DNA of 32,852 bases. It comes from Eledone cirrhosa. Its lineage: Eukaryota. Position numbers and translations under genes: made by a program. Position 1 is the first letter of the stretch. Each line of letters opens with the position of its first letter. Of the stretch, positions 5,365 through 32,074 are shown one piece after another. The notes under the pieces were generated by a model, which ran no database searches, had not been told where the DNA came from, and worked only from the letters and a program-made list of their open reading frames with translations. Location of the stretch: contig CAXHJY010000145.1 of assembly GCA_964016885.1 (NCBI GenBank), positions 1 through 32,852 of the forward strand. Reading direction: 5' to 3'.

Positions 5365-5425
<61 letters not shown>

Positions 5426-5763
5426 ATAAGAAACGGAGAATCAGTGGTGCGACGAATTAAAATTTATTAGACATATTACAATCGTTTTTCTGTGCGCGTC
5501 TATGTGCGCAATTGTATCAGAGTCTGTATAAGCAATTGTTTCCGAGTTCATGTGTATGTGTGTGTGCGGATTGGTGTGAACTTGTGAGTTTACATGTGAG
5601 TGTACATGTAAACTCACAAGTGCACACACACATACACATGAACTCAGAAACAATTGCTTATACAGACTCTGATACATTTGCGCACATAGACGCGCACAGA
5701 AAAACGATTGTAATATGTCTAATACATTTTAATTCGTCGCACCACTGATTCTCCGTTTCTTAT

Positions 5764-5816
<53 letters not shown>

Positions 5817-6124: not shown

Positions 6125-7780
6125 TAAATGCGTGTGTATGTGCAGATATGTGCACGTGTGTGTGTTGGTAGATTTTGTGTGTGCATTTGTTGCGAGTTTA
6201 TGTGCACGTGTGAGTGTACGCGTGTTTGCGCGATTGTGTGTGCGTGTATATGCGCCGTGTGTGCATGTGCATTCGCGCAGTGTTTTTGTGCGCGTTTTGA
6301 GCGCACTTTAATGCACCTTTTGTGCACTTTCATGCGCATCGTTTGCACAATACTGTGCATGTTTTCTGCGCGTTTTTTGTGCGCGTTATTGCGCGAACCT
6401 TTGTGCGCATTTTGTGCACGATTTGCGTGTGTTTTTGTGCGCGTATTTGTGCGCGTTTTTGTGCACGTTCCTGTGCGTCTTTTCGTGGAGTAATTATGTG
6501 CGCTTTTTCTGCAAGTTTTTGTGCACGATTTGCGCGTGATTTTAGTGCCCATTTTGTGCAAGATTTTGTGCGTTTTTGTGCATGTTTTTGTGCTCGTTGT
6601 CGTCTTGTTAAATGAGCACTTTTGGTGCACATTCTGTGCGTTCTTTGGTGCAAGTTTTTGTGTGCGTTTTCGTGCATTATTTTGTGCACGTTTTCGGGCA
6701 TCTTAATGCGCGTTTTTTGCGCGAGCTTTTGTGCGCCTTTCGTGCACGATTTGCGTGCGTCTTTGTGCACGTTTTTATGCATCTTTTTTCTGCAAGATTT
6801 TGTGCGCTTTTTGTGCACGATTTGCGGATGATTTTAGTGCACATTTTGTGCGTTTTTGTGCACATTTTTGTCAAGTTTTCTGCGCGTTTTTGCACGATCT
6901 TTTGTGCGCTTCTTTTGTGCACATGTTGTGCATGATTTTGTGCATTCTTTTGCACAAGATTTTGTGCGCGTTTCATGCACGTTTTTGTGCGTCTTTTTGT
7001 GAAATATATTTGTCCGCTTTTTCTGTCAGTGTTTATGCGCTTTTTCTGTACAATTTGTGAACTTTTTAGTGAGCATTTTGTGCACATTTGTGCATGATTT
7101 TGTGCATGTTTTCGTGCGCGTTTTTGCGCGAGATTTTGTGCGTTCTTTTGTGCTAGTTTTTGTGCGCATTTTCGTGCATTATTCTTGTGCGCGCTTTTGT
7201 GACCTTTTGCACTTTTGTGCAAGATTTTGTGCGTTCCTTTGGGCATGCTTTAGTGCGCGCTTTTGTGCACGTTTCTGTACGCTTGAGCTTTTGTGCATTT
7301 ATTGCACTTTTTGTACACGTATTGCGCGCGTTTTTGTGCACATTTTTTTGTATCTTTTTCTGAAGTATGTTTGTGCGATTTTTCTGCACTTTTGTTTAAG
7401 ATTTTGTGCGTTCTTCTGTGCATGTTTTTGTGCGCCTTTTTGTCACGTTTTGTGCGCTTTTTCTGCACGATTTGTGCGCGTTGTAATGCACATTTTGTTC
7501 ACTTTTGTGCAAGATTTAGTGCGTTCTTTTGTTCATGTTTTTGTGCGCGTTTTCGTGCACGTTTTCTCATGAGCCTTTGTTCGCTTTTTGTGCACGGTTT
7601 GCGCGCGTTTTTGTACGCGTTGTTTGTGCGCTTTTTTGTGCCTTTTTAGTGCGCCTTTCTGCAATCTTTTACTCTTTTTGTGCTTGATTTTTGTGCTTTT
7701 TGTGCGCGTTCTTGTCTACGTTTGCGTGCAGGTTTTTGTGCGTTATTTTGTGCGCTTTTCACGCAAGGTTTGTGCGCTTT
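6125..7780. repeat. Degenerate TTTTGTGCRC minisatellite (~10-12-bp period)
   Basis: Reiterated T-tract plus GTGCAC/GTGCGC motifs with strong strand asymmetry; source of the overlapping low-complexity ORFs. Confidence 0.9.
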
Positions 7781-7993: not shown

Positions 7994-8180
7994 ATATACA
8001 TAATATATACTTAATATACATAATATATAGAAATATATACTTAATATATATATATATATATACATACATAATATATATATATACATAATATATATATATA
8101 TATATACATAATATATATATATACATACATAATATATATATATATATATAAATAAATTTATACATTATATATATATACAT
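7781..8180. repeat. (TA)n-rich tract
   Basis: Directly visible. Confidence 0.95.
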
Positions 8181-8181
8181 T

Positions 8182-9133
8182 CACTGGCACCTAGAAGTCT
8201 TATATATTTTTATGTGAGCTGATAGAGGACAGTTTAAGGATTTACACAAACCCAAGAAGCTAGATTTACCATCTTTCTAGCGGGTCCGGGTATGCTTTTT
8301 ACATTCATTTGATTTATTGATTTATTGATTTTTTATCTGTGTGTCCCGAATCTTCCAGATCGCAATTTTTCGGTTGTATGGTTGATTATAGACTTGTTCT
8401 ATGTGTGACGGTATTTTAACGATAGTTATAGCTCTGATTTATCTAAATTATTGAGCCCTCTGCCGCTCATATCGAATTTTGTTTATCGTGAACTCGTGCG
8501 CCGATTTTTCGATACTCGATTATTCTACTATATTTAGCTCTAGACCTAGCTATTGACCAGTTAATTCTATTGTTCATTTTTTGTCGATTCTATTAAATGA
8601 TGAATAGCTCCTGTTTATTTTAACATGTCTATTGAGCACTCTTATTCGATATGTGTATTTCCACATTTTCCCGAATATTTTTCGCGGATATAGAGGTTAT
8701 CTCCCTTGCTGAATTACATGTGCGTATTTAGCCTGGGTTATGCCTTTTCATTCGTTTGGACAAAGCTCGTTGAGGAAGTAAACTCCCGTCCACTGGCACC
8801 TAGAAGTCTTATATATTTTTATGTGAGCTGATAGAGGACAGTTTAAGGATTTACAGAAACCCGAGAAGCTAGATTTACCATCTTTCTAGCGGGTCCGGGT
8901 ATGATTTTACATTCATTTGATTTATTGATTTATTGATTTTTTATCTGAGTGTCCCGAATCTTCCAGATCGCAATTTTTCGGTTGTATGTTTGATTATAGA
9001 CTTGTTCTATGTGTGACGGTATTTTAACGATAGTTATAGCTCTGATTTATCTAAATTATTGAGCCCTCTGCCGCTCATATCGAATTTTGTTTATCGTGAA
9101 CTCGTGCGCCGATTTTTCGATACTCGATTATTC

Positions 9134-9140
<7 letters not shown>
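8182..9140 (+). mobile_element. Retrozyme-like element, 609-bp unit x ~1.6 (subfamily of the main array)
   Basis: 8182 onward repeats at 8791 onward; clearly homologous to the 616-bp unit; flanked by (TA)n on both sides. Confidence 0.9.
8765..8900 (+). ncRNA. Variant type I hammerhead (UUGAGGA core, long stem II)
   Basis: Stem I GCTCG/CGGGT; TTGAGGA 8770-8776; stem II base GTAAA/TTTAC; GAAAC 8856-8860; stem III ACCCG/CGGGT; GTC 8893-8895. Confidence 0.75.
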
Positions 9141-9513: not shown

Positions 9514-9659
9514 TTATAGAGGCTAGATTCTTATAGAATTCCTGTAATAATCAGGAACTGATTATACAGAGCGATTGCCGGTCTAGCAATAATTAAAAAT
9601 TAGGATTGGTGCTCTGAAATAGCGATGTATACATGAATGTATGTATAGTATATTTGGCA

Positions 9660-10115
9660 ATATACCGTATGTTCAATTATTGCATTAATTTTACACTTGC
9701 TGAATTCACCTGCCAAGAACTGGGGTTACCTCCCTTGCAGAGATATACCCGTGGTGTCTCACTACTCCATACTATTGCATTAATTCCGCATGCTGGCGTA
9801 GAATAAAATACTTGTTGAGGAAGTGACAGCTTGTTCGATCATTATACCAAAAGCTTATTATTGAAGCAGGCAGTATAATTGATTTAAGTGTCGCAGAAAC
9901 CCTTTACTAGATTATACCATCATTTCCCTGAGTCCGGGTAAATATTCTTTTGTTTGACCTGTTTGGCTTGCCTCTCTTTTTTTGGCTTAGGTGGTTGATG
10001 ACTTCATGACCGCCATCTCAATTTGTTTGGCCTTTATAACCTATGTTTATTGGTATGGTCTTTTTTTGGTCCATGGAGCGCTTGCCAGCATAACTCGGAT
10101 ATTGCCTTTCGCTTT

Positions 10116-10119
<4 letters not shown>
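9660..10119 (+). mobile_element. Diverged partial retrozyme-like unit with hammerhead at 9809-9940
   Basis: Stem I TACTTG/CGGGTA; TTGAGGA 9815-9821; stem II GTGACA/TGTCGC; GAAAC 9896-9900; GTC 9932-9934; stem III degraded. Ends in (TA)n. The 5' boundary is approximate. Confidence 0.7.
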
Positions 10120-10145
<26 letters not shown>

Positions 10146-10152
<7 letters not shown>

Positions 10153-10262
10153 AGCTTTCACCGTATTTTTGACTAAAGAAATTTTAGCCTGATAATGGGG
10201 TTCTAAACCCCATTATCAGGCTAAAATTTCTTTAGTCAAAAATACGGTGAAAGCTATTCTAT
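10146..10262. repeat. Perfect 57-bp-arm hairpin with a 3-nt loop
   Basis: 10146-10202 is the exact reverse complement of 10206-10262; the loop is CTA. Confidence 0.95.
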
Positions 10263-10309
10263 TTTCTAATTTCAAACCTGCTCACTGTTTCAAAACATAC
10301 TTACTTGTC

Positions 10310-15808: not shown

Positions 15809-16510
15809 AAAAAGAGCGGAGCAAGCGGTTATCAAATAATTCTCTAAATAAATTTTAAAACGATTTAAATAATCACCTGTTCCATTGCTGTTACCGACGG
15901 TTTCACCATTCCAAAAATTAGAAATCCAGAGAATTTCCAATGGAAAGAAATGGATCTTCAGACAGCTTATTTCCATACTATAAGGTTGCCAGCCTTACAG
16001 CAAGTAAATATTTCGATTCCTGCCCAACGCATGCGGTCAACCCGTTAAAATGACACACGCAAAATCAGGTCGCAGATAATAGCTGTTTATTATAAACGTG
16101 TTGATACTGCCACTAAAATTAGCAGCATTATTCAACGTTTTGTTCTCTACATAAGGAGAAAAATTATAAAAGTGGATGAATACTTCAACAGGCACTAAGT
16201 ACTTGTAGAAATATGCAAGGTGTTTATAATAGTTGTGGTTCGATGGTACTAATTTGAGATACCAGAACAATAGAAAAAGAGCGGAGCAAGCGGTTATCAC
16301 ATAATTCTCTAAATAAATTAAAAAACGATTTAAATAATCACCTCTTCTATTGCTGTTACCGGCGGTTTCACCATTCCAAAAATTGGAAATCCAGAGAATT
16401 TCCAATGTTCTGGTATCTCAAATTAGTACCATCGAACCACAACTATTATAAACACCTTGCATATTTCTACAAGTACTTAGTGCCTGTTGAAGTATTCATC
16501 CACTTTTATA
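15808..16510 (-). mobile_element. 465-bp-unit retrozyme/pLTR-like element (1.3 units) with an inverted 5' segment
   Basis: 15808-15941 repeats at ~16274-16407 (period 465). 16406-16510 is the reverse complement of 16165-16269. Both flanks are TA. Confidence 0.85.
15887..15966 (-). ncRNA. Type I hammerhead with extended stem II
   Basis: Minus strand: GCTGT-CTGAAGA-T-CCATT...AATGG-T-GAAAC-CGTCG-GTA-ACAGC; GUA site. Confidence 0.8.
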
Positions 16511-16581
16511 TACATATATATATATATATATTTCAAAACATACTTGATATATATATATATATATACATACACATATATATA

Positions 16582-19500
16582 TATATGTGAGCTGATAGAG
16601 TACAGTCTAAGGATTTACAGAAACCCAAGAAGCTAGATTTAACACCTTTCTAGTGGGTCCGGGTATGATTTTACATTCATTTAAATTATTGATGTATTGT
16701 TTTATTGATATTTTTTATCTGATTGTCCCGAATCTTCTATTATCGATTTTTTATCGTATGGTTGATTTTAGACTTGTTCTATGTGTGACGGTATTTTAAC
16801 GATAGTTATAGCTCTGATTCATCTGAATTATTGAGCCCTCTGCCGCTCATTTCGAATATTGTTTATCGTGAACTTGTGCGCCGATTTTTCGATACTCGAT
16901 CTTTCTAATATTTTTAGCTCTGGACATAGCTATCCACCAGTTAATTTTATTGCTCATTTTTTGTCGATTCTATTGAGTGATGAATAGCTCCTGTTTTATT
17001 TTAACATGTCTATTGAGCACTCTTATTCGATATGTGTATTTCCACATTTCCTCGAATAGTTTTCGCGGATGTAGAGGTTATCTCCCTTGCCGGATTCCAT
17101 GTGCGTATTTCGCTTGTAGTTAGCCTCTTATCCGCTAGGAAAAAGCTCGTTGATGAAGTAAACTTCCATTCCGCTTGCTCTAGAAGTCTTATATATTTAT
17201 ATGTGAGCTGATAGAGTACAGTCTAAGGATTTACAGAAACCCAAGAAGCTAGATTTAACACCTTTCTAGTGGGTCCGGGTATGATTTTACATTCATTTAA
17301 ATTATTGATGTATTGTTTTATTGATATTTTTTATCTGATTGTCCCGAATCTTCTATTATCGACTTTTTATCGTATGGTTGATTTTAGACTTGTTCTATGT
17401 GTGACGGTATTTTAACGATAGTTATAGCTCTGATTCATCTGAATTATTGAGCCCTCTGCCGCTCATTTCGAATATTGTTTATCGTGAACTCGTGCGCCGA
17501 TTTTTCGATACTCGATCTTTCTAATATTTTTAGCTCTGGACATAGCTATCCACCAGTTAATTTTATTGCTCATTTTTTGTCGATTCTATTGATTGATGAA
17601 TAGCTCCTGTTTTATTTTAACATGTCTATTGAGCACTCTTATTCGATATGTGTATTTCCACATTTCCTCGAATAGTTTTCGCGGATGTAGAGGTTATCTC
17701 CCTTGCCGGATTCCATGTGCGTATTTCGCTTGTAGTTGGCCTCTTATCCGCTAGGAAAAAGCTCGTTGATGAAGTAAACTTCCATTCCGCTTGCTCTAGA
17801 AGTCTTATATATTTATATGTGAGCTGATAGAGTACAGTCTAAGGATTTACAGAAACCCAAGAAGCTAGATTTAACACCTTTCTAGTGGGTCCGGGTATGA
17901 TTTTACATTCATTTAAATTATTGATGTATTGTTTTATTGATATTTTTTATCTGATTGTCCCGAATCTTCTATTATCGATTTTTTATCGTATGGTTGATTT
18001 TAGAATTGTTCTATGTGTGACGGTATTTTAACGATAGTTATAGCTCTGATTCATCTGAATTATTGAGCCCTCTGCCGCTCATTTCGAATATTGTTTATCG
18101 TGAACTCGTGCGCCGATTTTTCGATACTCGATCTTTCTAATATTTTTAGCTCTGGACATAGCTATCCACCAGTTAATTTTATTGCTCATTTTTTGTCGAT
18201 TCTATTGAGTGATGAATAGCTCCTGTTTTATTTTAACATGTCTATTGAGCACTCTTATTCGATATGTGTATTTCCACATTTCCTCGAATAGTTTTCGCGG
18301 ATGTAGAGGTTATCTCCCTTGCCGGATTCCATGTGCGTATTTCGCTTGTAGTTAGCCTCTTATCCGCTAGGAAAAAGCTCGTTGATGAAGTAAACTTCCA
18401 TTCCGCTTGCTCTAGAAGTCTTATATATTTATATGTGAGCTGATAGAGTACAGTCTAAGGATTTACAGAAACCCAAGAAGCTAGATTTAACACCTTTCTA
18501 GTGGGTCCGGGTATGATTTTACATTCATTTAAATTATTGATGTATTGTTTTATTGATATTTTTTATCTGATTGTCCCGAATCTTCTATTATCGACTTTTT
18601 AGCGTATGGTTGATTTTAGACTTGTTCTATGTGTGACGGTATTTTAACGATAGTTATAGCTCTGATTCATCTGAATTATTGAGCCCTCTGCCGCTCATTT
18701 CGAATATTGTTTATCGTGAACTCGTGCGCCGATTTTTCGATACTCGATCTTTCTAATATTTTTAGCTCTGGACATAGCTATCCACCAGTTAATTTTATTG
18801 CTCATTTTTTGTCGATTCTATTGATTGATGAATAGCTCCTGTTTTATTTTAACATGTCTATTGAGCACTCTTATTCGATATGTGTATTTCCACATTTCCT
18901 CGAATAGTTTTCGCGGATGTAGAGGTTATCTCCCTTGCCGGATTCCATGTGCGTATTTCGCTTGTAGTTGGCCTCTTATCCGCTAGGAAAAAGCTCGTTG
19001 ATGAAGTAAACTTCCATTCCGCTTGCTCTAGAAGTCTTATATATTTATATGTGAGCTGATAGAGTACAGTCTAAGGATTTACAGAAACCCAAGAAGCTAG
19101 ATTTAACACCTTTCTAGTGGGTCCGGGTATGATTTTACATTCATTTAAATTATTGATGTATTGTTTTATTGATATTTTTTATCTGATTGTCCCGAATCTT
19201 CTATTATCGATTTTTTATCGTATGGTTGATTTTAGAATTGTTCTATGTGTGACGGTATTTTAACGATAGTTATAGCTCTGATTCATCTGAATTATTGAGC
19301 CCTCTGCCGCTCATTTCGAATATTGTTTATCGTGAACTCGTGCGCCGATTTTTCGATACTCGATCTTTCTAATATTTTTAGCTCTGGACATAGCTATCCA
19401 CCAGTTAATTTTATTGCTCATTTTTTGTCGATTCTATTGAGTGATGAATAGCTCCTGTTTTATTTTAACATGTCTATTGAGCACTCTTATTCGATATGTG

Positions 19501-22500
19501 TATTTCCACATTTCCTCGAATAGTTTTCGCGGATGTAGAGGTTATCTCCCTTGCCGGATTCCATGTGCGTATTTCGCTTGTAGTTAGCCTTTATCCGCTA
19601 GGAAAAAGCTCGTTGATGAAGTAAACTTCCATTCCGCTTGCTCTAGAAGTCTTATATATTTATATGTGAGCTGATAGAGTACAGTCTAAGGATTTACAGA
19701 AACCCAAGAAGCTAGATTTACCATCTTTCTAGTGGGTCCGGGTATGATTTTACATTCATTTAAATTATTGATGTATTGTTTTATTGATATTTTTTATCTG
19801 ATTGTCCCGAATCTTCTATTATCGATTTTTTATCGTATGGTTGATTTTAGAATTGTTCTATGTGTGACGGTATTTTAACGATAGTTATAGCTCTGATTCA
19901 TCTGAATTATTGAGCCCTCTGCCGCTCATTTCGAATATTGTTTATCGTGAACTCGTGCGCCGATTTTTCGATACTCGATCTTTCTAATATTTTTAGCTCT
20001 GGACATAGCTATCCACCAGTTAATTTTATTGCTCATTTTTTGTCGATTCTATTGAGTGATGAATAGCTCCTGTTTTATTTTAACATGTCTATTGAGCACT
20101 CTTATTCGATATGTGTATTTCCACATTTCCTCGAATAGTTTTCGCGGATGTAGAGGTTATCTCCCTTGCCGGATTCCATGTGCGTATTTCGCTTGTAGTT
20201 AGCCTCTTATCCGCTAGGAAAAAGCTCGTTGATGAAGTAAACTTCCATTCCGCTTGCTCTAGAAGTCTTATATATTTATATGTGAGCTGATAGAGTACAG
20301 TCTAAGGATTTACAGAAACCCAAGAAGCTAGATTTAACACCTTTCTAGTGGGTCCGGGTATGATTTTACATTCATTTAAATTATTGATGTATTGTTTTAT
20401 TGATATTTTTTATCTGATTGTCCCGAATCTTCTATTATCGACTTTTTATCGTATGGTTGATTTTAGACTTGTTCTATGTGTGACGGTATTTTAACGATAG
20501 TTATAGCTCTGATTCATCTGAATTATTGAGCCCTCTGCCGCTCATTTCGAATATTGTTTATCGTGAACTCGTGCGCCGATTTTTCGATACTCGATCTTTC
20601 TAATATTTTTAGCTCTGGACATAGCTATCCACCAGTTAATTTTATTGCTCATTTTTTGTCGATTCTATTGAGTGATGAATAGCTCCTGTTTTATTTTAAC
20701 ATGTCTATTGAGCACTCTTATTCGATATGTGTATTTCCACATTTCCTCGAATAGTTTTCGCGGATGTAGAGGTTACCTCCCTTGCCGGATTCCATGTGCG
20801 TATTTCGCTTGTAGTTAGCCTCTTATCCGCTAGGAAAAAGCTCGTTGATGAAGTAAACTTCCATTCCGCTTGCTCTAGAAGTCTTATATATTTATATGTG
20901 AGCTGATAGAGTACAGTCTAAGGATTTACAGAAACCCAAGAAGCTAGATTTAACACCTTTCTAGTGGGTCCGGGTATGATTTTACATTCATTTAAATTAT
21001 TGATGTATTGTTTTATTGATATTTTTTATCTGATTGTCCCGAATCTTCTATTATCGATTTTTTATCGTATGGTTGATTTTAGACTTGTTCTATGTGTGAC
21101 GGTATTTTAACGATAGTTATAGCTCTGATTCATCTGAATTATTGAGCCCTCTGCCGCTCATTTCGAATATCGTTTATCGTGAACTCGTGCGCCGATTTTT
21201 CGATACTCGATCTTTCTAATATTTTTAGCTCTGGACATAGCTATCCACCAGTTAATTTTATTGCTCATTTTTTGTCGATTCTATTGAGTGATGAATAGCT
21301 CCTGTTTTATTTTAACATGTCTATTGAGCACTCTTATTCGATATGTGTATTTCCACATTTCCTCGAATAGTTTTCGCGGATGTAGAGGTTATCTCCCTTG
21401 CCGGATTCCATGTGCGTATTTCGCTTGTAGTTAGCCTCTTATCCGCTAGGAAAAAGCTCGTTGATGAAGTAAACTTCCATTCCGCTTGCTCTAGAAGTCT
21501 TATATATTTATATGTGAGCTGATAGAGTACAGTCTAAGGATTTACAGAAACCCAAGAAGCTAGATTTAACACCTTTCTAGTGGGTCCGGGTATGATTTTA
21601 CATTCATTTAAATTATTGATGTATTGTTTTATTGATATTTTTTATCTGATTGTCCCGAATCTTCTATTATCGACTTTTTAGCGTATGGTTGATTTTAGAC
21701 TTGTTCTATGTGTGACGGTATTTTAACGATAGTTATAGCTCTGATTCATCTGAATTATTGAGCCCTCTGCCGCTCATTTCGAATATTGTTTATCGTGAAC
21801 TCGTGCGCCGATTTTTCGATACTCGATCTTTCTAATATTTTTAGCTCTGGACATAGCTATCCACCAGTTAATTTTATTGCTCATTTTTTGTCGATTCTAT
21901 TGATTGATGAATAGCTCCTGTTTTATTTTAACATGTCTATTGAGCACTCTTATTCGATATGTGTATTTCCACATTTCCTCGAATAGTTTTCGCGGATGTA
22001 GAGGTTATCTCCCTTGCCGGATTCCATGTGCGTATTTCGCTTGTAGTTGGCCTCTTATCCGCTAGGAAAAAGCTCGTTGATGAAGTAAACTTCCATTCCG
22101 CTTGCTCTAGAAGTCTTATATATTTATATGTGAGCTGATAGAGTACAGTCTAAGGATTTACAGAAACCCAAGAAGCTAGATTTAACACCTTTCTAGTGGG
22201 TCCGGGTATGATTTTACATTCATTTAAATTATTGATGTATTGTTTTATTGATATTTTTTATCTGATTGTCCCGAATCTTCTATTATCGATTTTTTATCGT
22301 ATGGTTGATTTTAGAATTGTTCTATGTGTGACGGTATTTTAACGATAGTTATAGCTCTGATTCATCTGAATTATTGAGCCCTCTGCCGCTCATTTCGAAT
22401 ATTGTTTATCGTGAACTCGTGCGCCGATTTTTCGATACTCGATCTTTCTAATATTTTTAGCTCTGGACATAGCTATCCACCAGTTAATTTTATTGCTCAT

Positions 22501-25500
22501 TTTTTGTCGATTCTATTGAGTGATGAATAGCTCCTGTTTTATTTTAACATGTCTATTGAGCACTCTTATTCGATATGTGTATTTCCACATTTCCTCGAAT
22601 AGTTTTCGCGGATGTAGAGGTTACCTCCCTTGCCGGATTCCATGTGCGTATTTCGCTTGTAGTTAGCCTCTTATCCGCTAGGAAAAAGCTCGTTGATGAA
22701 GTAAACTTCCATTCCGCTTGCTCTAGAAGTCTTATATATTTATATGTGAGCTGATAGAGTACAGTCTAAGGATTTACAGAAACCCAAGAAGCTAGATTTA
22801 ACACCTTTCTAGTGGGTCCGGGTATGATTTTACATTCATTTAAATTATTGATGTATTGTTTTATTGATATTTTTTATCTGATTGTCCCGAATCTTCTATT
22901 ATCGATTTTTTATCGTATGGTTGATTTTAGACTTGTTCTATGTGTGACGGTATTTTAACGATAGTTATAGCTCTGATTCATCTGAATTATTGAGCCCTCT
23001 GCCGCTCATTTCGAATATCGTTTATCGTGAACTCGTGCGCCGATTTTTCGATACTCGATCTTTCTAATATTTTTAGCTCTGGACATAGCTATCCACCAGT
23101 TAATTTTATTGCTCATTTTTTGTCGATTCTATTGAGTGATGAATAGCTCCTGTTTTATTTTAACATGTCTATTGAGCACTCTTATTCGATATGTGTATTT
23201 CCACATTTCCTCGAATAGTTTTCGCGGATGTAGAGGTTATCTCCCTTGCCGGATTCCATGTGCGTATTTCGCTTGTAGTTAGCCTCTTATCCGCTAGGAA
23301 AAAGCTCGTTGATGAAGTAAACTTCCATTCCGCTTGCTCTAGAAGTCTTATATATTTATATGTGAGCTGATAGAGTACAGTCTAAGGATTTACAGAAACC
23401 CAAGAAGCTAGATTTAACATCTTTCTAGTGGGTCCGGGTATGATTTTACATTCATTTAAATTATTGATGTATTGTTTTATTGATATTTTTTATCTGATTG
23501 TCCCGAATCTTCTATTATCGACTTTTTAGCGTATGGTTGATTTTAGACTTGTTCTATGTGTGACGGTATTTTAACGATAGTTATAGCTCTGATTCATCTG
23601 AATTATTGAGCCCTCTGCCGCTCATTTCGAATATTGTTTATCGTGAACTCGTGCGCCGATTTTTCGATACTCGATCTTTCTAATATTTTTAGCTCTGGAC
23701 ATAGCTATCCACCAGTTAATTTTATTGCTCATTTTTTGTCGATTCTATTGATTGATGAATAGCTCCTGTTTTATTTTAACATGTCTATTGAGCACTCTTA
23801 TTCGATATGTGTATTTCCACATTTCCTCGAATAGTTTTCGCGGATGTAGAGGTTATCTCCCTTGCCGGATTCCATGTGCGTATTTCGCTTGTAGTTGGCC
23901 TCTTATCCGCTAGGAAAAAGCTCGTTGATGAAGTAAACTTCCATTCCGCTTGCTCTAGAAGTCTTATATATTTATATGTGAGCTGATAGAGTACAGTCTA
24001 AGGATTTACAGAAACCCAAGAAGCTAGATTTAACACCTTTCTAGTGGGTCCGGGTATGATTTTACATTCATTTAAATTATTGATGTATTGTTTTATTGAT
24101 ATTTTTTATCTGATTGTCCCGAATCTTCTATTATCGATTTTTTATCGTATGGTTGATTTTAGAATTGTTCTATGTGTGACGGTATTTTAACGATAGTTAT
24201 AGCTCTGATTCATCTGAATTATTGAGCCCTCTGCCGCTCATTTCGAATATTGTTTATCGTGAACTCGTGCGCCGATTTTTCGATACTCGATCTTTCTAAT
24301 ATTTTTAGCTCTGGACATAGCTATCCACCAGTTAATTTTATTGCTCATTTTTTGTCGATTCTATTGAGTGATGAATAGCTCCTGTTTTATTTTAACATGT
24401 CTATTGAGCACTCTTATTCGATATGTGTATTTCCACATTTCCTCGAATAGTTTTCGCGGATGTAGAGGTTATCTCCCTTGCCGGATTCCATGTGCGTATT
24501 TCGCTTGTAGTTAGCCTTTATCCGCTAGGAAAAAGCTCGTTGATGAAGTAAACTTCCATTCCGCTTGCTCTAGAAGTCTTATATATTTATATGTGAGCTG
24601 ATAGAGTACAGTCTAAGGATTTACAGAAACCCAAGAAGCTAGATTTACCATCTTTCTAGTGGGTCCGGGTATGATTTTACATTCATTTAAATTATTGATG
24701 TATTGTTTTATTGATATTTTTTATCTGATTGTCCCGAATCTTCTATTATCGATTTTTTATCGTATGGTTGATTTTAGAATTGTTCTATGTGTGACGGTAT
24801 TTTAACGATAGTTATAGCTCTGATTCATCTGAATTATTGAGCCCTCTGCCGCTCATTTCGAATATTGTTTATCGTGAACTCGTGCGCCGATTTTTCGATA
24901 CTCGATCTTTCTAATATTTTTAGCTCTGGACATAGCTATCCACCAGTTAATTTTATTGCTCATTTTTTGTCGATTCTATTGAGTGATGAATAGCTCCTGT
25001 TTTATTTTAACATGTCTATTGAGCACTCTTATTCGATATGTGTATTTCCACATTTCCTCGAATAGTTTTCGCGGATGTAGAGGTTATCTCCCTTGCCGGA
25101 TTCCATGTGCGTATTTCGCTTGTAGTTAGCCTCTTATCCGCTAGGAAAAAGCTCGTTGATGAAGTAAACTTCCATTCCGCTTGCTCTAGAAGTCTTATAT
25201 ATTTATATGTGAGCTGATAGAGTACAGTCTAAGGATTTACAGAAACCCAAGAAGCTAGATTTAACACCTTTCTAGTGGGTCCGGGTATGATTTTACATTC
25301 ATTTAAATTATTGATGTATTGTTTTATTGATATTTTTTATCTGATTGTCCCGAATCTTCTATTATCGACTTTTTATCGTATGGTTGATTTTAGACTTGTT
25401 CTATGTGTGACGGTATTTTAACGATAGTTATAGCTCTGATTCATCTGAATTATTGAGCCCTCTGCCGCTCATTTCGAATATTGTTTATCGTGAACTCGTG

Positions 25501-28500
25501 CGCCGATTTTTCGATACTCGATCTTTCTAATATTTTTAGCTCTGGACATAGCTATCCACCAGTTAATTTTATTGCTCATTTTTTGTCGATTCTATTGAGT
25601 GATGAATAGCTCCTGTTTTATTTTAACATGTCTATTGAGCACTCTTATTCGATATGTGTATTTCCACATTTCCTCGAATAGTTTTCGCGGATGTAGAGGT
25701 TACCTCCCTTGCCGGATTCCATGTGCGTATTTCGCTTGTAGTTAGCCTCTTATCCGCTAGGAAAAAGCTCGTTGATGAAGTAAACTTCCATTCCGCTTGC
25801 TCTAGAAGTCTTATATATTTATATGTGAGCTGATAGAGTACAGTCTAAGGATTTACAGAAACCCAAGAAGCTAGATTTAACACCTTTCTAGTGGGTCCGG
25901 GTATGATTTTACATTCATTTAAATTATTGATGTATTGTTTTATTGATATTTTTTATCTGATTGTCCCGAATCTTCTATTATCGATTTTTTATCGTATGGT
26001 TGATTTTAGACTTGTTCTATGTGTGACGGTATTTTAACGATAGTTATAGCTCTGATTCATCTGAATTATTGAGCCCTCTGCCGCTCATTTCGAATATCGT
26101 TTATCGTGAACTCGTGCGCCGATTTTTCGATACTCGATCTTTCTAATATTTTTAGCTCTGGACATAGCTATCCACCAGTTAATTTTATTGCTCATTTTTT
26201 GTCGATTCTATTGAGTGATGAATAGCTCCTGTTTTATTTTAACATGTCTATTGAGCACTCTTATTCGATATGTGTATTTCCACATTTCCTCGAATAGTTT
26301 TCGCGGATGTAGAGGTTATCTCCCTTGCCGGATTCCATGTGCGTATTTCGCTTGTAGTTAGCCTCTTATCCGCTAGGAAAAAGCTCGTTGATGAAGTAAA
26401 CTTCCATTCCGCTTGCTCTAGAAGTCTTATATATTTATATGTGAGCTGATAGAGTACAGTCTAAGGATTTACAGAAACCCAAGAAGCTAGATTTAACACC
26501 TTTCTAGTGGGTCCGGGTATGATTTTACATTCATTTAAATTATTGATGTATTGTTTTATTGATATTTTTTATCTGATTGTCCCGAATCTTCTATTATCGA
26601 CTTTTTAGCGTATGGTTGATTTTAGACTTGTTCTATGTGTGACGGTATTTTAACGATAGTTATAGCTCTGATTCATCTGAATTATTGAGCCCTCTGCCGC
26701 TCATTTCGAATATTGTTTATCGTGAACTCGTGCGCCGATTTTTCGATACTCGATCTTTCTAATATTTTTAGCTCTGGACATAGCTATCCACCAGTTAATT
26801 TTATTGCTCATTTTTTGTCGATTCTATTGATTGATGAATAGCTCCTGTTTTATTTTAACATGTCTATTGAGCACTCTTATTCGATATGTGTATTTCCACA
26901 TTTCCTCGAATAGTTTTCGCGGATGTAGAGGTTATCTCCCTTGCCGGATTCCATGTGCGTATTTCGCTTGTAGTTGGCCTCTTATCCGCTAGGAAAAAGC
27001 TCGTTGATGAAGTAAACTTCCATTCCGCTTGCTCTAGAAGTCTTATATATTTATATGTGAGCTGATAGAGTACAGTCTAAGGATTTACAGAAACCCAAGA
27101 AGCTAGATTTAACACCTTTCTAGTGGGTCCGGGTATGATTTTACATTCATTTAAATTATTGATGTATTGTTTTATTGATATTTTTTATCTGATTGTCCCG
27201 AATCTTCTATTATCGATTTTTTATCGTATGGTTGATTTTAGAATTGTTCTATGTGTGACGGTATTTTAACGATAGTTATAGCTCTGATTCATCTGAATTA
27301 TTGAGCCCTCTGCCGCTCATTTCGAATATTGTTTATCGTGAACTCGTGCGCCGATTTTTCGATACTCGATCTTTCTAATATTTTTAGCTCTGGACATAGC
27401 TATCCACCAGTTAATTTTATTGCTCATTTTTTGTCGATTCTATTGAGTGATGAATAGCTCCTGTTTTATTTTAACATGTCTATTGAGCACTCTTATTCGA
27501 TATGTGTATTTCCACATTTCCTCGAATAGTTTTCGCGGATGTAGAGGTTATCTCCCTTGCCGGATTCCATGTGCGTATTTCGCTTGTAGTTAGCCTCTTA
27601 TCCGCTAGGAAAAAGCTCGTTGATGAAGTAAACTTCCATTCCGCTTGCTCTAGAAGTCTTATATATTTATATGTGAGCTGATAGAGTACAGTCTAAGGAT
27701 TTACAGAAACCCAAGAAGCTAGATTTAACACCTTTCTAGTGGGTCCGGGTATGATTTTACATTCATTTAAATTATTGATGTATTGTTTTATTGATATTTT
27801 TTATCTGATTGTCCCGAATCTTCTATTATCGACTTTTTATCGTATGGTTGATTTTAGACTTGTTCTATGTGTGACAGTATTTTAAGGATAGTTATAGCTC
27901 TGAATCATCTGAATTATTGAGCCCTCTGCCGCTCATTTCGAATATTGTTTATCGTGAACTCGTGCGCCGATTTTTCGATACTCGATCTTTCTAATATTTT
28001 TAGCTCTGGACATAGCTATCCACCAGTTAATTTTATTGCTCATTTTTTGTCGATTCTATTGAGTGATGAATAGCTCCTGTTTTATTTTAACATGTCTATT
28101 GAGCACTCTTATTCGATATGTGTATTTCCACATTTCCTCGAATAGTTTTCGCGGATGTAGAGGTTATCTCCCTTGCCGGATTCCATGTGCGTATTTCGCT
28201 TGTAGTTGGCCTCTTATCCGCTAGGAAAAAGCTCGTTGATGAAGTAAACTTCCATTCCGCTTGCTCTAGAAGTCTTATATATTTATATGTGAGCTGATAG
28301 AGTACAGTCTAAGGATTTACAGAAACCCAAGAAGCTAGATTTAACACCTTTCTAGTGGGTCCGGGTATGATTTTACATTCATTTAAATTATTGATGTATT
28401 GTTTTATTGATATTTTTTATCTGATTGTCCCGAATCTTCTATTATCGATTTTTTATCGTATGGTTGATTTTAGAATTGTTCTATGTGTGACGGTATTTTA

Positions 28501-29841
28501 ACGATAGTTATAGCTCTGATTCATCTGAATTATTGAGCCCTCTGCCGCTCATTTCGAATATTGTTTATCGTGAACTCGTGCGCCGATTTTTCGATACTCG
28601 ATCTTTCTAATATTTTTAGCTCTGGACATAGCTATCCACCAGTTAATTTTATTGCTCATTTTTTGTCGATTCTATTGAGTGATGAATAGCTCCTGTTTTA
28701 TTTTAACATGTCTATTGAGCACTCTTATTCGATATGTGTATTTCCACATTTCCTCGAATAGTTTTCGCGGATGTAGAGGTTATCTCCCTTGCCGGATTCC
28801 ATGTGCGTATTTCGCTTGTAGTTAGCCTCTTATCCGCTAGGAAAAAGCTCGTTGATGAAGTAAACTTCCATTCCGCTTGCTCTAGAAGTCTTATATATTT
28901 ATATGTGAGCTGATAGAGTACAGTCTAAGGATTTACAGAAACCCAAGAAGCTAGATTTAACACCTTTCTAGTGGGTCCGGGTATGATTTTACATTCATTT
29001 AAATTATTGATGTATTGTTTTATTGATATTTTTTATCTGATTGTCCCGAATCTTCTATTATCGACTTTTTATCGTATGGTTGATTTTAGACTTGTTCTAT
29101 GTGTGACGGTATTTTAACGATAGTTATAGCTCTGATTCATCTGAATTATTGAGCCCTCTGCCGCTCATTTCGAATATTGTTTATCGTGAACTCGTGCGCC
29201 GATTTTTCGATACTCGATCTTTCTAATATTTTTAGCTCTGGACATAGCTATCCACCAGTTAATTTTATTGCTCATTTTTTGTCGATTCTATTGAGTGATG
29301 AATAGCTCCTGTTTTATTTTAACATGTCTATTGAGCACTCTTATTCGATATGTGTATTTCCACATTTCCTCGAATAGTTTTCGCGGATGTAGAGGTTATC
29401 TCCCTTGCCGGATTCCATGTGCGTATTTCGCTTGTAGTTAGCCTCTTATCCGCTAGGAAAATGCTCGTTGATGAAGTAAACTTCCATTCCGCTTGCTCTA
29501 GAAGTCTTATATATTTATATGTGAGCTGATAGAGTACAGTCTAAGGATTTACAGAAACCCAAGAAGCTAGATTTAACACCTTTCTAGTGGGTCCGGGTAT
29601 GATTTTACATTCATTTAAATTATTGATGTATTGTTTTATTGATATTTTTTATCTGATTGTCCCGAATCTTCTATTATCGATTTTTTATCGTATGGTTGAT
29701 TTTAGACTTGTTCTATGTGTGACGGTATTTTAACGATAGTTATAGCTCTGATTCATCTGAATTATTGAGCCCTCTGCCGCTCATTTCGAATATTGTTTAT
29801 CGTGAACTCGTGCGCCGATTTTTCGATACTCGATCTTTCTA
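16582..29841 (+). mobile_element. Tandem array of 616-bp hammerhead-containing (retrozyme-like) units, ~21.5 copies
   Basis: GCTGATAGAG recurs at 16591, 17207, 17823 ... 29525 (22 times; spacing 616, twice 615). Units differ at only a few sites. There are no ORFs in the track, and (TA)n flanks both sides. Confidence 0.93.
17145..17280 (+). ncRNA. Variant type I hammerhead (first of 21 complete copies in the array)
   Basis: Stem I GCTCG/CGGGT; TTGATGA 17150-17156; A.A then GTAAA/TTTAC, GCTCTA/TAGAGT and CTTATATA/TATGTGAG; GAAAC 17236-17240; stem III ACCCA/TGGGT plus CTAGA/TCTAG; GTC 17273-17275. Confidence 0.78.
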
Positions 29842-29883
<42 letters not shown>

Positions 29884-29909
29884 GTGGGAAAGTGAAAAAT
29901 CGGAGAATA

Positions 29910-29987
29910 GACCGTTAAAACATGTTTATTGAAAACATCACCTACGTACGTTTCGCCCAGTTGGGCTTCTCAAGGGCATAAACGGTC
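29910..29987 (-). ncRNA. Penelope 3'-UTR hammerhead, U3-A8 variant with palindromic stem III
   Basis: Minus strand: CC-TTGAGAA-GCCC-AACT-GGGC-GAAAC-GTAC-GTA-GG. Distal stem I GACCGTT/AACGGTC. ACGTACGT is self-complementary, typical of dimeric folding. Confidence 0.8.
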
Positions 29988-30228
29988 ACAAGTGTTCCTT
30001 ATATAGTTTGGAAAGAGATTTGGGGGTTAAATCGACATCAAGATTCATTGTTCGCAAAAATATCTTGTTTTGATTTTGCAGCAGGTCAAGGGAGGTAACT
30101 TTGGCCGGTGTTAGGGCAGTCTTTCCCGGATAATTTTTGGTATGCAGGGATCGTTTTCTGGGTGTTATTTTGCTGCGCCTGCCCGCCGGGGTGTTAAGAC
30201 TTGTTGCAGGGAGATCCAGTGTGTTATT

Positions 30229-31254
30229 TCACTCTCCATTCTTAACCCATCTAAAGAAGGATATTTTTAAGCGATGTGTACAACTTATCGCTGTTTCAGC
30301 TCTGCTGTTGATGTGCTCGTGGGGTGCAGTTATGATGTGGTAGAGCTCCATGAGGCAAAGATCGCATTTCCTCTTGAAGTTGTACGGTGCAGCCCTGTCG
30401 ACAATCTCCCAGTGCGTGGAGAAGCTAATGTTTAAGTCCTTTAGTGATGTGATGTAGTCCGCGAGCGAGGTGGAGTGCCTTAGTTTTCTATTTGTGAAAG
30501 AGTGGAGATGTGTTCGAAACCTAATTTTGAACGGGCCGGAGGTGGCCCCTATATAATGTTTAACGCTATTGTGGCTAGTAATAGTGCATCTATATATAAC
30601 TCTATCGGTCAAGCAGTATCCTCTAAGGGGGCACCGTCCTCTGTCGCGGCAGTTGCAATTTCTGTCGCTGTTCCGTCTATTTCCCACGATAAGGCTATCA
30701 TTGTTGATGCCTACGTTGTTAGCTGCGCTACTGCAGCTGTCGTTAGCACAATTACAGCCCACAGCACGCGGGATGGTGCGATTGTTATTCCGCACGCCAT
30801 GTTTTGCATGCTTCCCAGTCACTTCGCGGTCATTCTGGTTGCGTCTGCGGATGCCGTTGCCAACACTATTGGATGCTGTCAGGGAGTTGTTAAGGCCGAT
30901 ACAGTTATTGTCAGGTGTAGGTGCATCTGCGTCGAGGTGCTGTGTCTTGGTGATCTTACTGTGGTTCGTTGTTCCTATGATGTCTGCTAGGTTAGGAGTA
31001 GTAGAGAAGGATATTTTTATATTATTCCTATTAAGAATTTTTCTATACCTATGGTTGGGTGGGAAGTTCTTCTCTAAGGCTTCGAAGAATATCCGGGGTA
31101 TGTTGGAGGCCACACTTCGAGAGTAGGGGGGGTGGAACCATAGGACGTTACGGTGGCGATTACGTGTCCTTGTACTTTTGCTACGGGTGGTTCCATCTAA
31201 GTGATCGCTCTTATGTGTGTTAATGCGCTGTCGCCCGTTCGGTGCCCCTTTCAC
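30229..31254 (-). CDS. C-terminal part of a Penelope-like ORF: linker, Cys knuckle and GIY-YIG endonuclease; RT absent
   Basis: WFHPPYS, CNCxxxxxCPLxGxC, VIY...YIG, FKxRxxxH, CxLCLxE and INSRxE motifs, uninterrupted for 341 aa. The GTG start lies at the junction with another element and is probably not the real start. Confidence 0.9.
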   Translation of the reverse strand: MKGAPNGRQRINTHKSDHLDGTTRSKSTRTRNRHRNVLWFHPPYSRSVASNIPRIFFEALEKNFPPNHRYRKILNRNNIKISFSTTPNLADIIGTTNHSKITKTQHLDADAPTPDNNCIGLNNSLTASNSVGNGIRRRNQNDREVTGKHAKHGVRNNNRTIPRAVGCNCANDSCSSAANNVGINNDSLIVGNRRNSDRNCNCRDRGRCPLRGYCLTDRVIYRCTITSHNSVKHYIGATSGPFKIRFRTHLHSFTNRKLRHSTSLADYITSLKDLNISFSTHWEIVDRAAPYNFKRKCDLCLMELYHIITAPHEHINSRAETAISCTHRLKISFFRWVKNGE

Positions 31255-31262
31255 TTTATATA

Positions 31263-32074
31263 AATCACATATACTTTTATTTGTTTGACCCGAATTACTT
31301 GGTCGTTTTGTGGCTGTGCGGATGATTGTTTAACCATCATCTCAGTGTGTTTGGCCTTTAACGTATGTTGTAGCTCTGGTTCATCTGAATCAGTGAGCGC
31401 TTGCCACACATCACGGAAGTTGTTTTTCGTTAATTCCTAAGCCGAAATACGATTCTCGCTAATTTATATTTGTATTAATCTCCAGCGTCTAGCTATTGAC
31501 CAGTTAATTTTCTTGATTTTTTTAGTTGATTCTATTGACTGATGAATAGCTTGTGTTAACTTATAACCATTCTGTTGAGAGCTTTATTCGTTTTGTGATG
31601 TTTTGCATTCTTGCAATTTTATACACATACTGAATTCATCCGCCTAAAATAAGAGTTGCCTCTCTTGCCGAGCCTTTGTGGGTCGGTAACGGTAATTCCT
31701 TAAATTAGCACTCGAACTAAAACCTGTTGAAAAATGACTTCCTTGTTCAATCATCTTACCAGAAGCCTAACATTATTCATGTAAGCGGACAGTACTTGAT
31801 TTAGAAGTCGCAGAAACCCAAATGCTGGATTTTACCAACCATCCAGGGGTCCGGGTAAATTTTCAATCACATATATTTTTATTTGTTTGACCCGAATTAC
31901 TTGGTCGTTTTTATGGCTGTGCGGATGATTGTTTAACCATCGTCTCAGTGTGTTTGGCCTTTAACGTATGTGGTAGCTCTGGTTCATCTGAATCATTGAG
32001 CGCTTGCCACACATCTCGGAAGTTGTTTTTCGTTAATTCCTAAGCCGAAATACGATTCTCGCTAATTTATATTT
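31263..32074 (+). mobile_element. Diverged retrozyme-like element, 602-bp unit x ~1.35, hammerhead at 31722-31856
   Basis: 31263 onward repeats at 31865 onward. Stem I ACCTG/CGGGT; TTGAAAA 31727-31733; stem II TGACTTC/GAAGTCG; GAAAC 31813-31817; ACCC/GGGT plus CTGGAT/ATCCAG; GTC 31849-31851. Confidence 0.8.

Follow-up and report, generated by a model that had tools for sequence, protein, structure and literature searches.

The contig analysed here carries, at 17145-17280, a sequence that folds like a hammerhead ribozyme with an unusual core, and this raises the question of whether the fold cleaves its own transcript and what kind of element it belongs to. The window (the whole stretch of DNA that was analysed, one complete contig of 32.9 kb from a 3.0-Gb genome) is AT-rich, with abundant (TA)n. 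An earlier note on this DNA had proposed a ribozyme; the hammerhead architecture is upheld below, while the host, a 616-bp tandem retroelement, had been overlooked. We propose, with a probability of roughly 0.7, that the motif is a hammerhead-type fold in a non-coding, (TA)n-targeting tandem retroelement, and that it likely cleaves the transcript after a GUC triplet, A8 and G8 both serving as partners of U3. About one insertion in four starts just beyond the predicted cut, U3·G8 subfamilies included, which makes self-cleavage of the transcript likely. The repeat is best read as a non-LTR retrozyme whose U3·R8 hammerhead has a long stem II, and its mobilisation by Hydra-clade Penelope elements is likely.

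A hammerhead fold in a tandem, non-coding repeat

The motif belongs to the earliest full unit in a plus-strand tandem array (16574-29841), which has a 616-bp non-coding unit, 21 complete hammerheads, a 5′-truncated first unit and (TA)n on both sides. The longest Met-initiated open reading frame in the two units examined is 59 aa, and the predicted fold of a single unit is stabler than 20 of 20 shuffled sequences (z -4.5). Variants within the array (16654-29588) recur every 8 units, as does, for example, a deletion common to units 5 and 13; this spacing is a higher-order duplication, typical of DNA-level copying, so the array in the window probably reached its length by duplication of DNA.

The window holds three other plus-strand loci of the same family. 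Locus 2 (8178-9136) comprises about 1.6 units of a 608-bp sister subfamily, with a U3·G8 hammerhead at 8765-8900; locus 3 (approximate limits 9650-10118) is a partial unit from the second main branch, with a U3·G8 hammerhead at 9810-9939 whose stem III has decayed; and locus 4 (31263-32072) comprises 1.3 units, starts 14 nt past an upstream cut site and has a U3-A8 hammerhead at 31722-31856. Also present are long, near-perfect inverted repeats flanked by (TA)n (5378-5811, 10143-10265 and 15860-16500), of the kind left by inverted, 5′-truncated Penelope-type insertions; weak matches of these to microRNA models were rejected as artefacts. A degenerate 12-bp tandem repeat of about 113 copies, GTTTTTGTGCAC-like and with marked strand asymmetry, occupies 6431-7741, and certain short flanking repeats may be similar to cephalopod SINEs.

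At 17145-17280, the first complete type I fold on the plus strand, stem I pairs 17145-17149 with 17276-17280. The 5′ strand of the core (17150-17157) reads U3 U4 G5 A6 U7 G8 A9 and then an extra A (A or C in the family); it leads into a stem II arm of 77 nt (17158-17234), with a G-C closing pair and internal loops, and from there into the 3′ core and stem III (17235-17275), which consist of an extra A, G12 A13 A14, stem III between A15.1 at 17239 and U16.1 at 17274, and C17 at 17275. Hammerhead numbering puts the predicted cut site between 17275 and 17276, after the GUC triplet. Three helices surround the core, with stem I open, as expected of a type I hammerhead, and the conserved positions U4 G5 A6, A9, G12 A13 A14, A15.1-U16.1 and H17 are present. 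The minimum free energy fold of 17140-17285 is a three-way junction of hammerhead topology (z -2.4); loci 2, 3 and 4 fold less cleanly than this, stem III being broken at locus 3, and of the 45 aligned copies only 16 have an ensemble in which the predicted junction is dominant.

The fold departs from canonical type I hammerheads at the stem II junction, in its loop contacts and, in a quarter of copies, at the 3-8 pair. Stem II does not close directly on A9 and G12, but is flanked by the extra A or C on one side and the extra A on the other (equivalently, a 10.1·11.1 mismatch), and no tertiary contact between loops 1 and 2, such as canonical animal motifs have, was found. A search of the window, and of 17100-17330 (231 nt), against Rfam gave no hammerhead match, as the earlier note had anticipated in saying that standard descriptors would miss the motif. 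Its description of the four loci was largely borne out: U3 is present in each of the quoted cores (TTGATGA at 17150, TTGAGGA at 8770, TTGAGGA at 9815 and TTGAAAA at 31727), and the stem I strands GCTCG, GCTCG, ACTTG and ACCTG all pair with CGGGT. The stem II of about 80 nt, said to be opened by an A·A mismatch, is 72-77 nt at these loci and 72-80 nt in the family; the mismatch is not uniform: among 45 distinct copies, 33 have A as the extra base after A9 and 12 have C. The assignment of all four loci as U3·G8 holds for loci 1 to 3 and fails for locus 4, where the pair is U3-A8 and the junction lacks one base, so that the four loci already held two states.

Two further ideas about the region of the cut fared poorly. 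An extended stem I was rejected, its observed energy over 46 flank pairs being -3.9 kcal/mol against -4.3 kcal/mol when shuffled. A splice donor at the cut, where GT follows in a GTRAG-like context, is weakened by one subfamily that reads GTCTG/GTTTG and by there being no conserved acceptor seen.

Conservation and covariation across the family

A pattern made from the 3′ half of the motif alone, which distant families may escape, matched 5,177 places in the genome, more than chance would give, against 0 for the reversed-pattern control. The fetched loci yielded 86 distinct motifs, which were thinned to 47 and aligned as 45 (alignment A1), with a chimeric row (L033) and a false match (L069) left out. 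These copies were chosen via the 3′ strand of stem I, proximal stem III and GAAA, and the conservation of these parts is therefore partly built in; stem II and positions 3 and 8 were not used in the choice.

Without constraints, RNAalifold recovered stems I, II and III from the 45 diverged copies and nothing in the core, and 93% of cells pair on a plain MAFFT alignment of these copies. Over the whole structure 45 cells are doubly changed, compared with 13.2 +/- 6.1 after shuffling (attained in 0 of 500 shuffles) and 5-15 in slid controls; stricter, pair-level measures are weaker, 29 of 500 shuffles attaining the observed number of pairs with a double change and 89 of 500 the number of further pair types. 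Covariation had been claimed for all the helices, and an alignment of genome copies proposed as the check. The claim survives in stem II, where two-sided changes are concentrated (5 of 8 pairs, U-A/C-G and G-C/A-U); variation in stem I is mostly one-sided, from C-G to U·G in 4 of 5 pairs, while one pair has changed on both sides to U-A; there is almost no variation in proximal stem III.

Within the core, G5 is conserved in 45 of 45 copies, A6 in 44 and U4 in 44, whereas position 7 shows all four bases, the free variation that had been reported from four loci. Only 18 copies in the genome carry G12A. The covarying stem II and a position 8 restricted to purines support the proposal that an atypical architecture is under selection.

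An excess of insertions starting beyond the predicted cut

The 3′ end of insertions is fixed, lying 190-245 nt (to an anchor motif) beyond the predicted cut and adjoining (TA)n; in the array this end motif is at 17496-17527 (plus strand), about 240-250 nt beyond the cut, and in the genome it adjoins (TA)n. About 997 and 1,276 plus-strand matches in the two branches have their 3′ ends against (TA)n. The 5′ ends are variable, and units are 572-624 nt long. Fixed 3′ ends with variable 5′ ends are a mark of retrotransposition; on this ground the element would be a retroelement that is target-primed and non-autonomous, with the hammerhead strand as its RNA.

The 5′ ends are not spread evenly. Insertions for mapping were chosen only by their 3′ end (the first 100 matches listed per 3′-end search, all on contig 1, less four of those listed), giving 86 mapped insertions, two of them open-ended; the ends of L181 and L185 were shifted by hand out of the cut bin, and BLAST mapping of 5′ ends, which is confounded by (TA)n flanks, was not used. 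Among the matches listed, ends fell in the bin from 0 to +26 in 25 of 88 passes, compared with 58 of 1,574 elsewhere. When five further insertions and four long-array starts were added to the mapped insertions, 26 of 93 5′ ends lay at 0 to +26, with 3 at -27 to -1 and 3 at +27 to +53 (p 1.5e-5, again among the matches listed). The TA-rich loop of stem II draws few ends by comparison (1 of 54 and 4 of 58).

At a finer scale, a genome-wide, non-redundant, minus-strand count of the 615/616 group has 40 TA-flanked starts at about +5 to +16, 10 at -5 to -23 and 1 at +1. Most starts lie 5-25 nt downstream of the cut, in AT-rich sequence where mapping is uncertain. Three are exactly at the cut: L117 and two members of a 20-locus set of starts round the cut, the other 18 of which begin 5-23 nt upstream, with none at -4 to -1 or at +2/+3. 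Most simply, the cut would supply the start of many template RNAs, the cDNA joining the target at the next TA. At L117:8-60 and L056, the 3′ end of a Penelope family (that of L233, below) is fused to the exact +1 base of the repeat without (TA)n, which looks like a template jump by the reverse transcriptase (RT).

The pair at positions 3 and 8

Counts over the whole motif, which are of copies and are inflated by arrays, give a Watson-Crick U3-A8 pair in 3,125, a U3·G8 wobble in 1,098 (the window copy included), a C3·A8 mismatch in 59 and C3-G8 in 1. Only 7 copies are U3·Y8 against 4,223 that are U3·R8, so position 8 is restricted to purines. G8 makes up 26% of copies here and about 1% in sister Penelope elements, and it is borne by whole expanding subfamilies rather than arising through decay. 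The C3·A8 state defines a subfamily of about 50 copies (L032:1408-1554, L066) with an otherwise strong predicted junction. Canonical C3-G8 minimal hammerheads do occur elsewhere in the genome, in other short repeats (L087:4449 and L099:4626, both on the minus strand, and L216).

On a midpoint-rooted tree of 54 of 83 rows, from which the U3·G8 copies of the second branch are absent, one of the two branches is U3-A8 throughout and the other is so at its base; branches with strong support call for at least 5-6 switches at position 8, with at least 3 gains of G8 and at least 2 returns to A8. From sequence comparison, U3-A8 is likely the ancestral state of the family, and G8 is derived from A8, not from C3-G8. 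The earlier view of U3·G8 as the family state, reached from C3-G8, is not supported, and the natural ‘repair’ is G8A, not U3C.

Single changes at the 3-8 pair are generally held to impair cleavage. The earlier note had suggested a perhaps attenuated ribozyme, and it might be supposed that U3-A8 copies are active while those with U3·G8 (or C3·A8) have lost some or all of their activity and hitch-hike, poor cleavage aiding read-through and the growth of arrays. The derived status of U3·G8, its reversions to A8, its avoidance by sister elements and the slightly lower share of copies with a predicted junction (3 of 11 for G8 and 12 of 32 for A8, p 0.72, not significant) all point that way. Against it, the ends at the cut are equally frequent in the two states: 8 of 26 passes assigned to G8 and 17 of 62 assigned to A8 (Fisher p 0.80), a weak proxy for activity in which states were assigned by nearest neighbour; of 27 assignments that could be compared with the core of the element itself, 3 disagreed. 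Since U3·G8 subfamilies show the same 5′-end excess, attenuation is not supported. The U3·G8 elements L118, L173 and L189 begin just beyond an upstream cut; G8 was gained repeatedly while Y8 never spread; and long arrays occur with either state. We consider impaired, hitch-hiking U3·G8 copies rather unlikely.

G8 being frequent here and almost absent in sister Penelope families suggests instead that it is tolerated specifically in this architecture. We would venture, tentatively and at somewhat less than even odds, that the mismatch-opened stem II of 75 nt makes U3·G8 competent, so that the pair can flip between U-A and U·G, and that the 5′ ends of insertions record cleavage whose incompleteness enables spread.

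Other origins of the 5′-end excess

The fold could also be selected as a structural signal with little or no self-cleavage, the pile-up of ends then marking the place (+5/+6) where stem I begins and RT stalls, or else a site of transcription initiation. Many starts do fall at +5, where the 3′ strand of stem I ends, exact +1 starts are few, the core departs from the consensus in two or three respects, and the promoters of Penelope-like elements (PLEs) sit in the terminal repeat. This reading accounts poorly for catalytic positions conserved beyond what pairing requires, and for a stem I of only 5 bp with G·U pairs halting an enzyme when the stronger stems II and III cause no pile-up; three joins exactly at +1 also speak against it, and we regard it as improbable.

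An ordinary satellite amplified as DNA, with a fossil hammerhead inherited from a Penelope terminal repeat, would fit the 8-unit spacing of variants in the window array and a local amplification of such a kind proposed in a preprint, and may still hold for array length, but for dispersal it is largely refuted by thousands of fixed 3′ ends against (TA)n with variable 5′ ends and by compensatory changes across subfamilies, which leaves it very improbable overall.

Penelope-like elements and a possible route of mobilisation

Hammerhead-bearing PLEs co-exist with the repeat in this genome. A 5′-truncated PLE on the minus strand (29883-31255), with a Hydra-type CxCX5C linker and, at the C terminus, a GIY-YIG domain, is joined head to head with locus 4 via a short TATATA; the pair may derive from a single event involving two RNAs or from two insertions, one nested in the other. 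It contains a minimal U3-A8 hammerhead-like core near 29935-29978, with a stem I of only about 2 bp; this core has 1,155 genome matches, with G8 in 1 among 100 listed. Its 3′ end and that of the repeat have the 10-nt word CCGATTTTTC in common, possibly by chance. Naiad was rejected as the clade of this element, whose endonuclease is C-terminal with CxCX5C. An autonomous Hydra-type Penelope family of at least 811 copies (L233:2000-7460) has in its terminal repeat a U3-A8 type I hammerhead with a stem II of ~50 nt and a stable stem III (G8 in 9 copies, A8 in 802); it forms inverted partial tandems, and in one case the 3′ end falls about 18 nt beyond the family's own predicted cut.

Autonomous elements nearby have RW[K/R], DKT and CxCX5C motifs, use (TA)n and carry U3-A8 hammerheads; Pfam gave only sub-threshold GIY-YIG matches to the PLEs. 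PLE reading frames are often near the repeat, with (TA)n or other sequence between in the six loci viewed, and the repeat was not found directly flanking an RT-endonuclease frame in 36 loci of 8 kb. No homology of the repeat to an autonomous partner was seen among the matches listed. Hydra-type elements are likely the RT source by their common target and U3-A8 core, and not by detected homology.

We propose that arrays would be transcribed and that the ribozyme would cut some of the junctions. A Penelope-like RT-endonuclease, probably of the Hydra clade, could then prime about 240 nt downstream of the cut, at nicked (TA)n. About one pass in four would run off the cleaved 5′ end and be joined where TA microhomology with the target is first met (+5 to +16), and the remaining passes would read through uncut or re-ligated, possibly circular, junctions to give copies or arrays with intact ribozymes. 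Partial processing or re-ligation to circles would be as described for published retrozymes (PMC7229834), and we infer cleavage and circular RNA for this element also. As priming takes place downstream of the cut, a copy able to found insertions can arise only if cleavage is incomplete or the ends are re-ligated; incomplete cleavage would therefore be favoured across the family, and this need may explain the tolerance of a sub-optimal core with its A·A/C·A mismatch and U·R pair. Several results weigh against the cleavage that we propose: the junction is dominant in a minority of predicted ensembles, the loop contact was not found, a C3·A8 subfamily exists, few starts fall exactly at the cut and, in a preprint, only 1 of 9 predicted retrozyme dimers cleaved in vitro.

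If this is so, ribozyme cleavage in the course of Penelope-driven retrotransposition would be recorded in the genome itself, by where thousands of insertions have their 5′ ends. Published papers describe as unclear what hammerheads do in Penelope elements and retrozymes, and insertions that start just past a predicted cut allow in vivo cleavage to be tested by counting in a genome. Natural sister copies that are nearly identical but differ at position 8, such as L034 and L243, offer a clean test of wobble tolerance at the 3-8 pair. Rfam and descriptor searches overlook such motifs by the thousand in a single genome, so surveys of retrozymes undercount. The literature covered, outside which lay most subscription journals, bioRxiv supplements and file S2 of PMC8557442, contains no description of the family or of the 5′-end footprint, and no report of repeated U-A/U·G switching was found in it.

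Comparison with known systems

The repeat most resembles the non-LTR retrozymes of animals described by Cervera & de la Pena 2020 (PMC7229834): these too are dispersed, non-coding tandem repeats with one type I hammerhead per unit and thousands of copies, are low in GC, have PLEs alongside and a stable predicted unit fold. In contrast to units of 170-400 nt there, ours is about 580-625 nt, with a U3·R8 core, an extra base on each side of a 72-80-nt stem II and a long, monomer-competent stem III. A 2026 preprint gives retrozyme consensus lengths of up to 972.

The U3-A8 pair, rightly called a natural variant in the earlier note, is documented in two papers: in the Cercyon Penelope hammerheads of Schistosoma (Cervera & de la Pena 2014, PMC4209133), and by Perreault et al. 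2011 (PMC3088659), where a U·U mismatch at the base of stem II is also known. The extra base after A9 in Penelope hammerheads is likewise already published. Compared with the Penelope hammerheads of PMC4209133, the present motif has another additional A, just ahead of G12, as well as a much longer stem II and frequent U3·G8, in an element without an ORF.

Targeting of (TA)n is common to the repeat and to the Hydra clade, whose hammerheads are called canonical by Craig et al. 2021 (PMC8557442), and the autonomous neighbours in this genome show the motifs of that clade. Unlike the elements described there, the repeat has no ORF and no detected homology to them, and we infer the partnership. Lastly, U3 together with G8 appears in the written core of one variant from a halophile (PMC7151607); there, a single microbial case has a 2-nt insertion before position 3, whereas here U3·G8 is found in 1,098 animal copies and has been gained and lost repeatedly.
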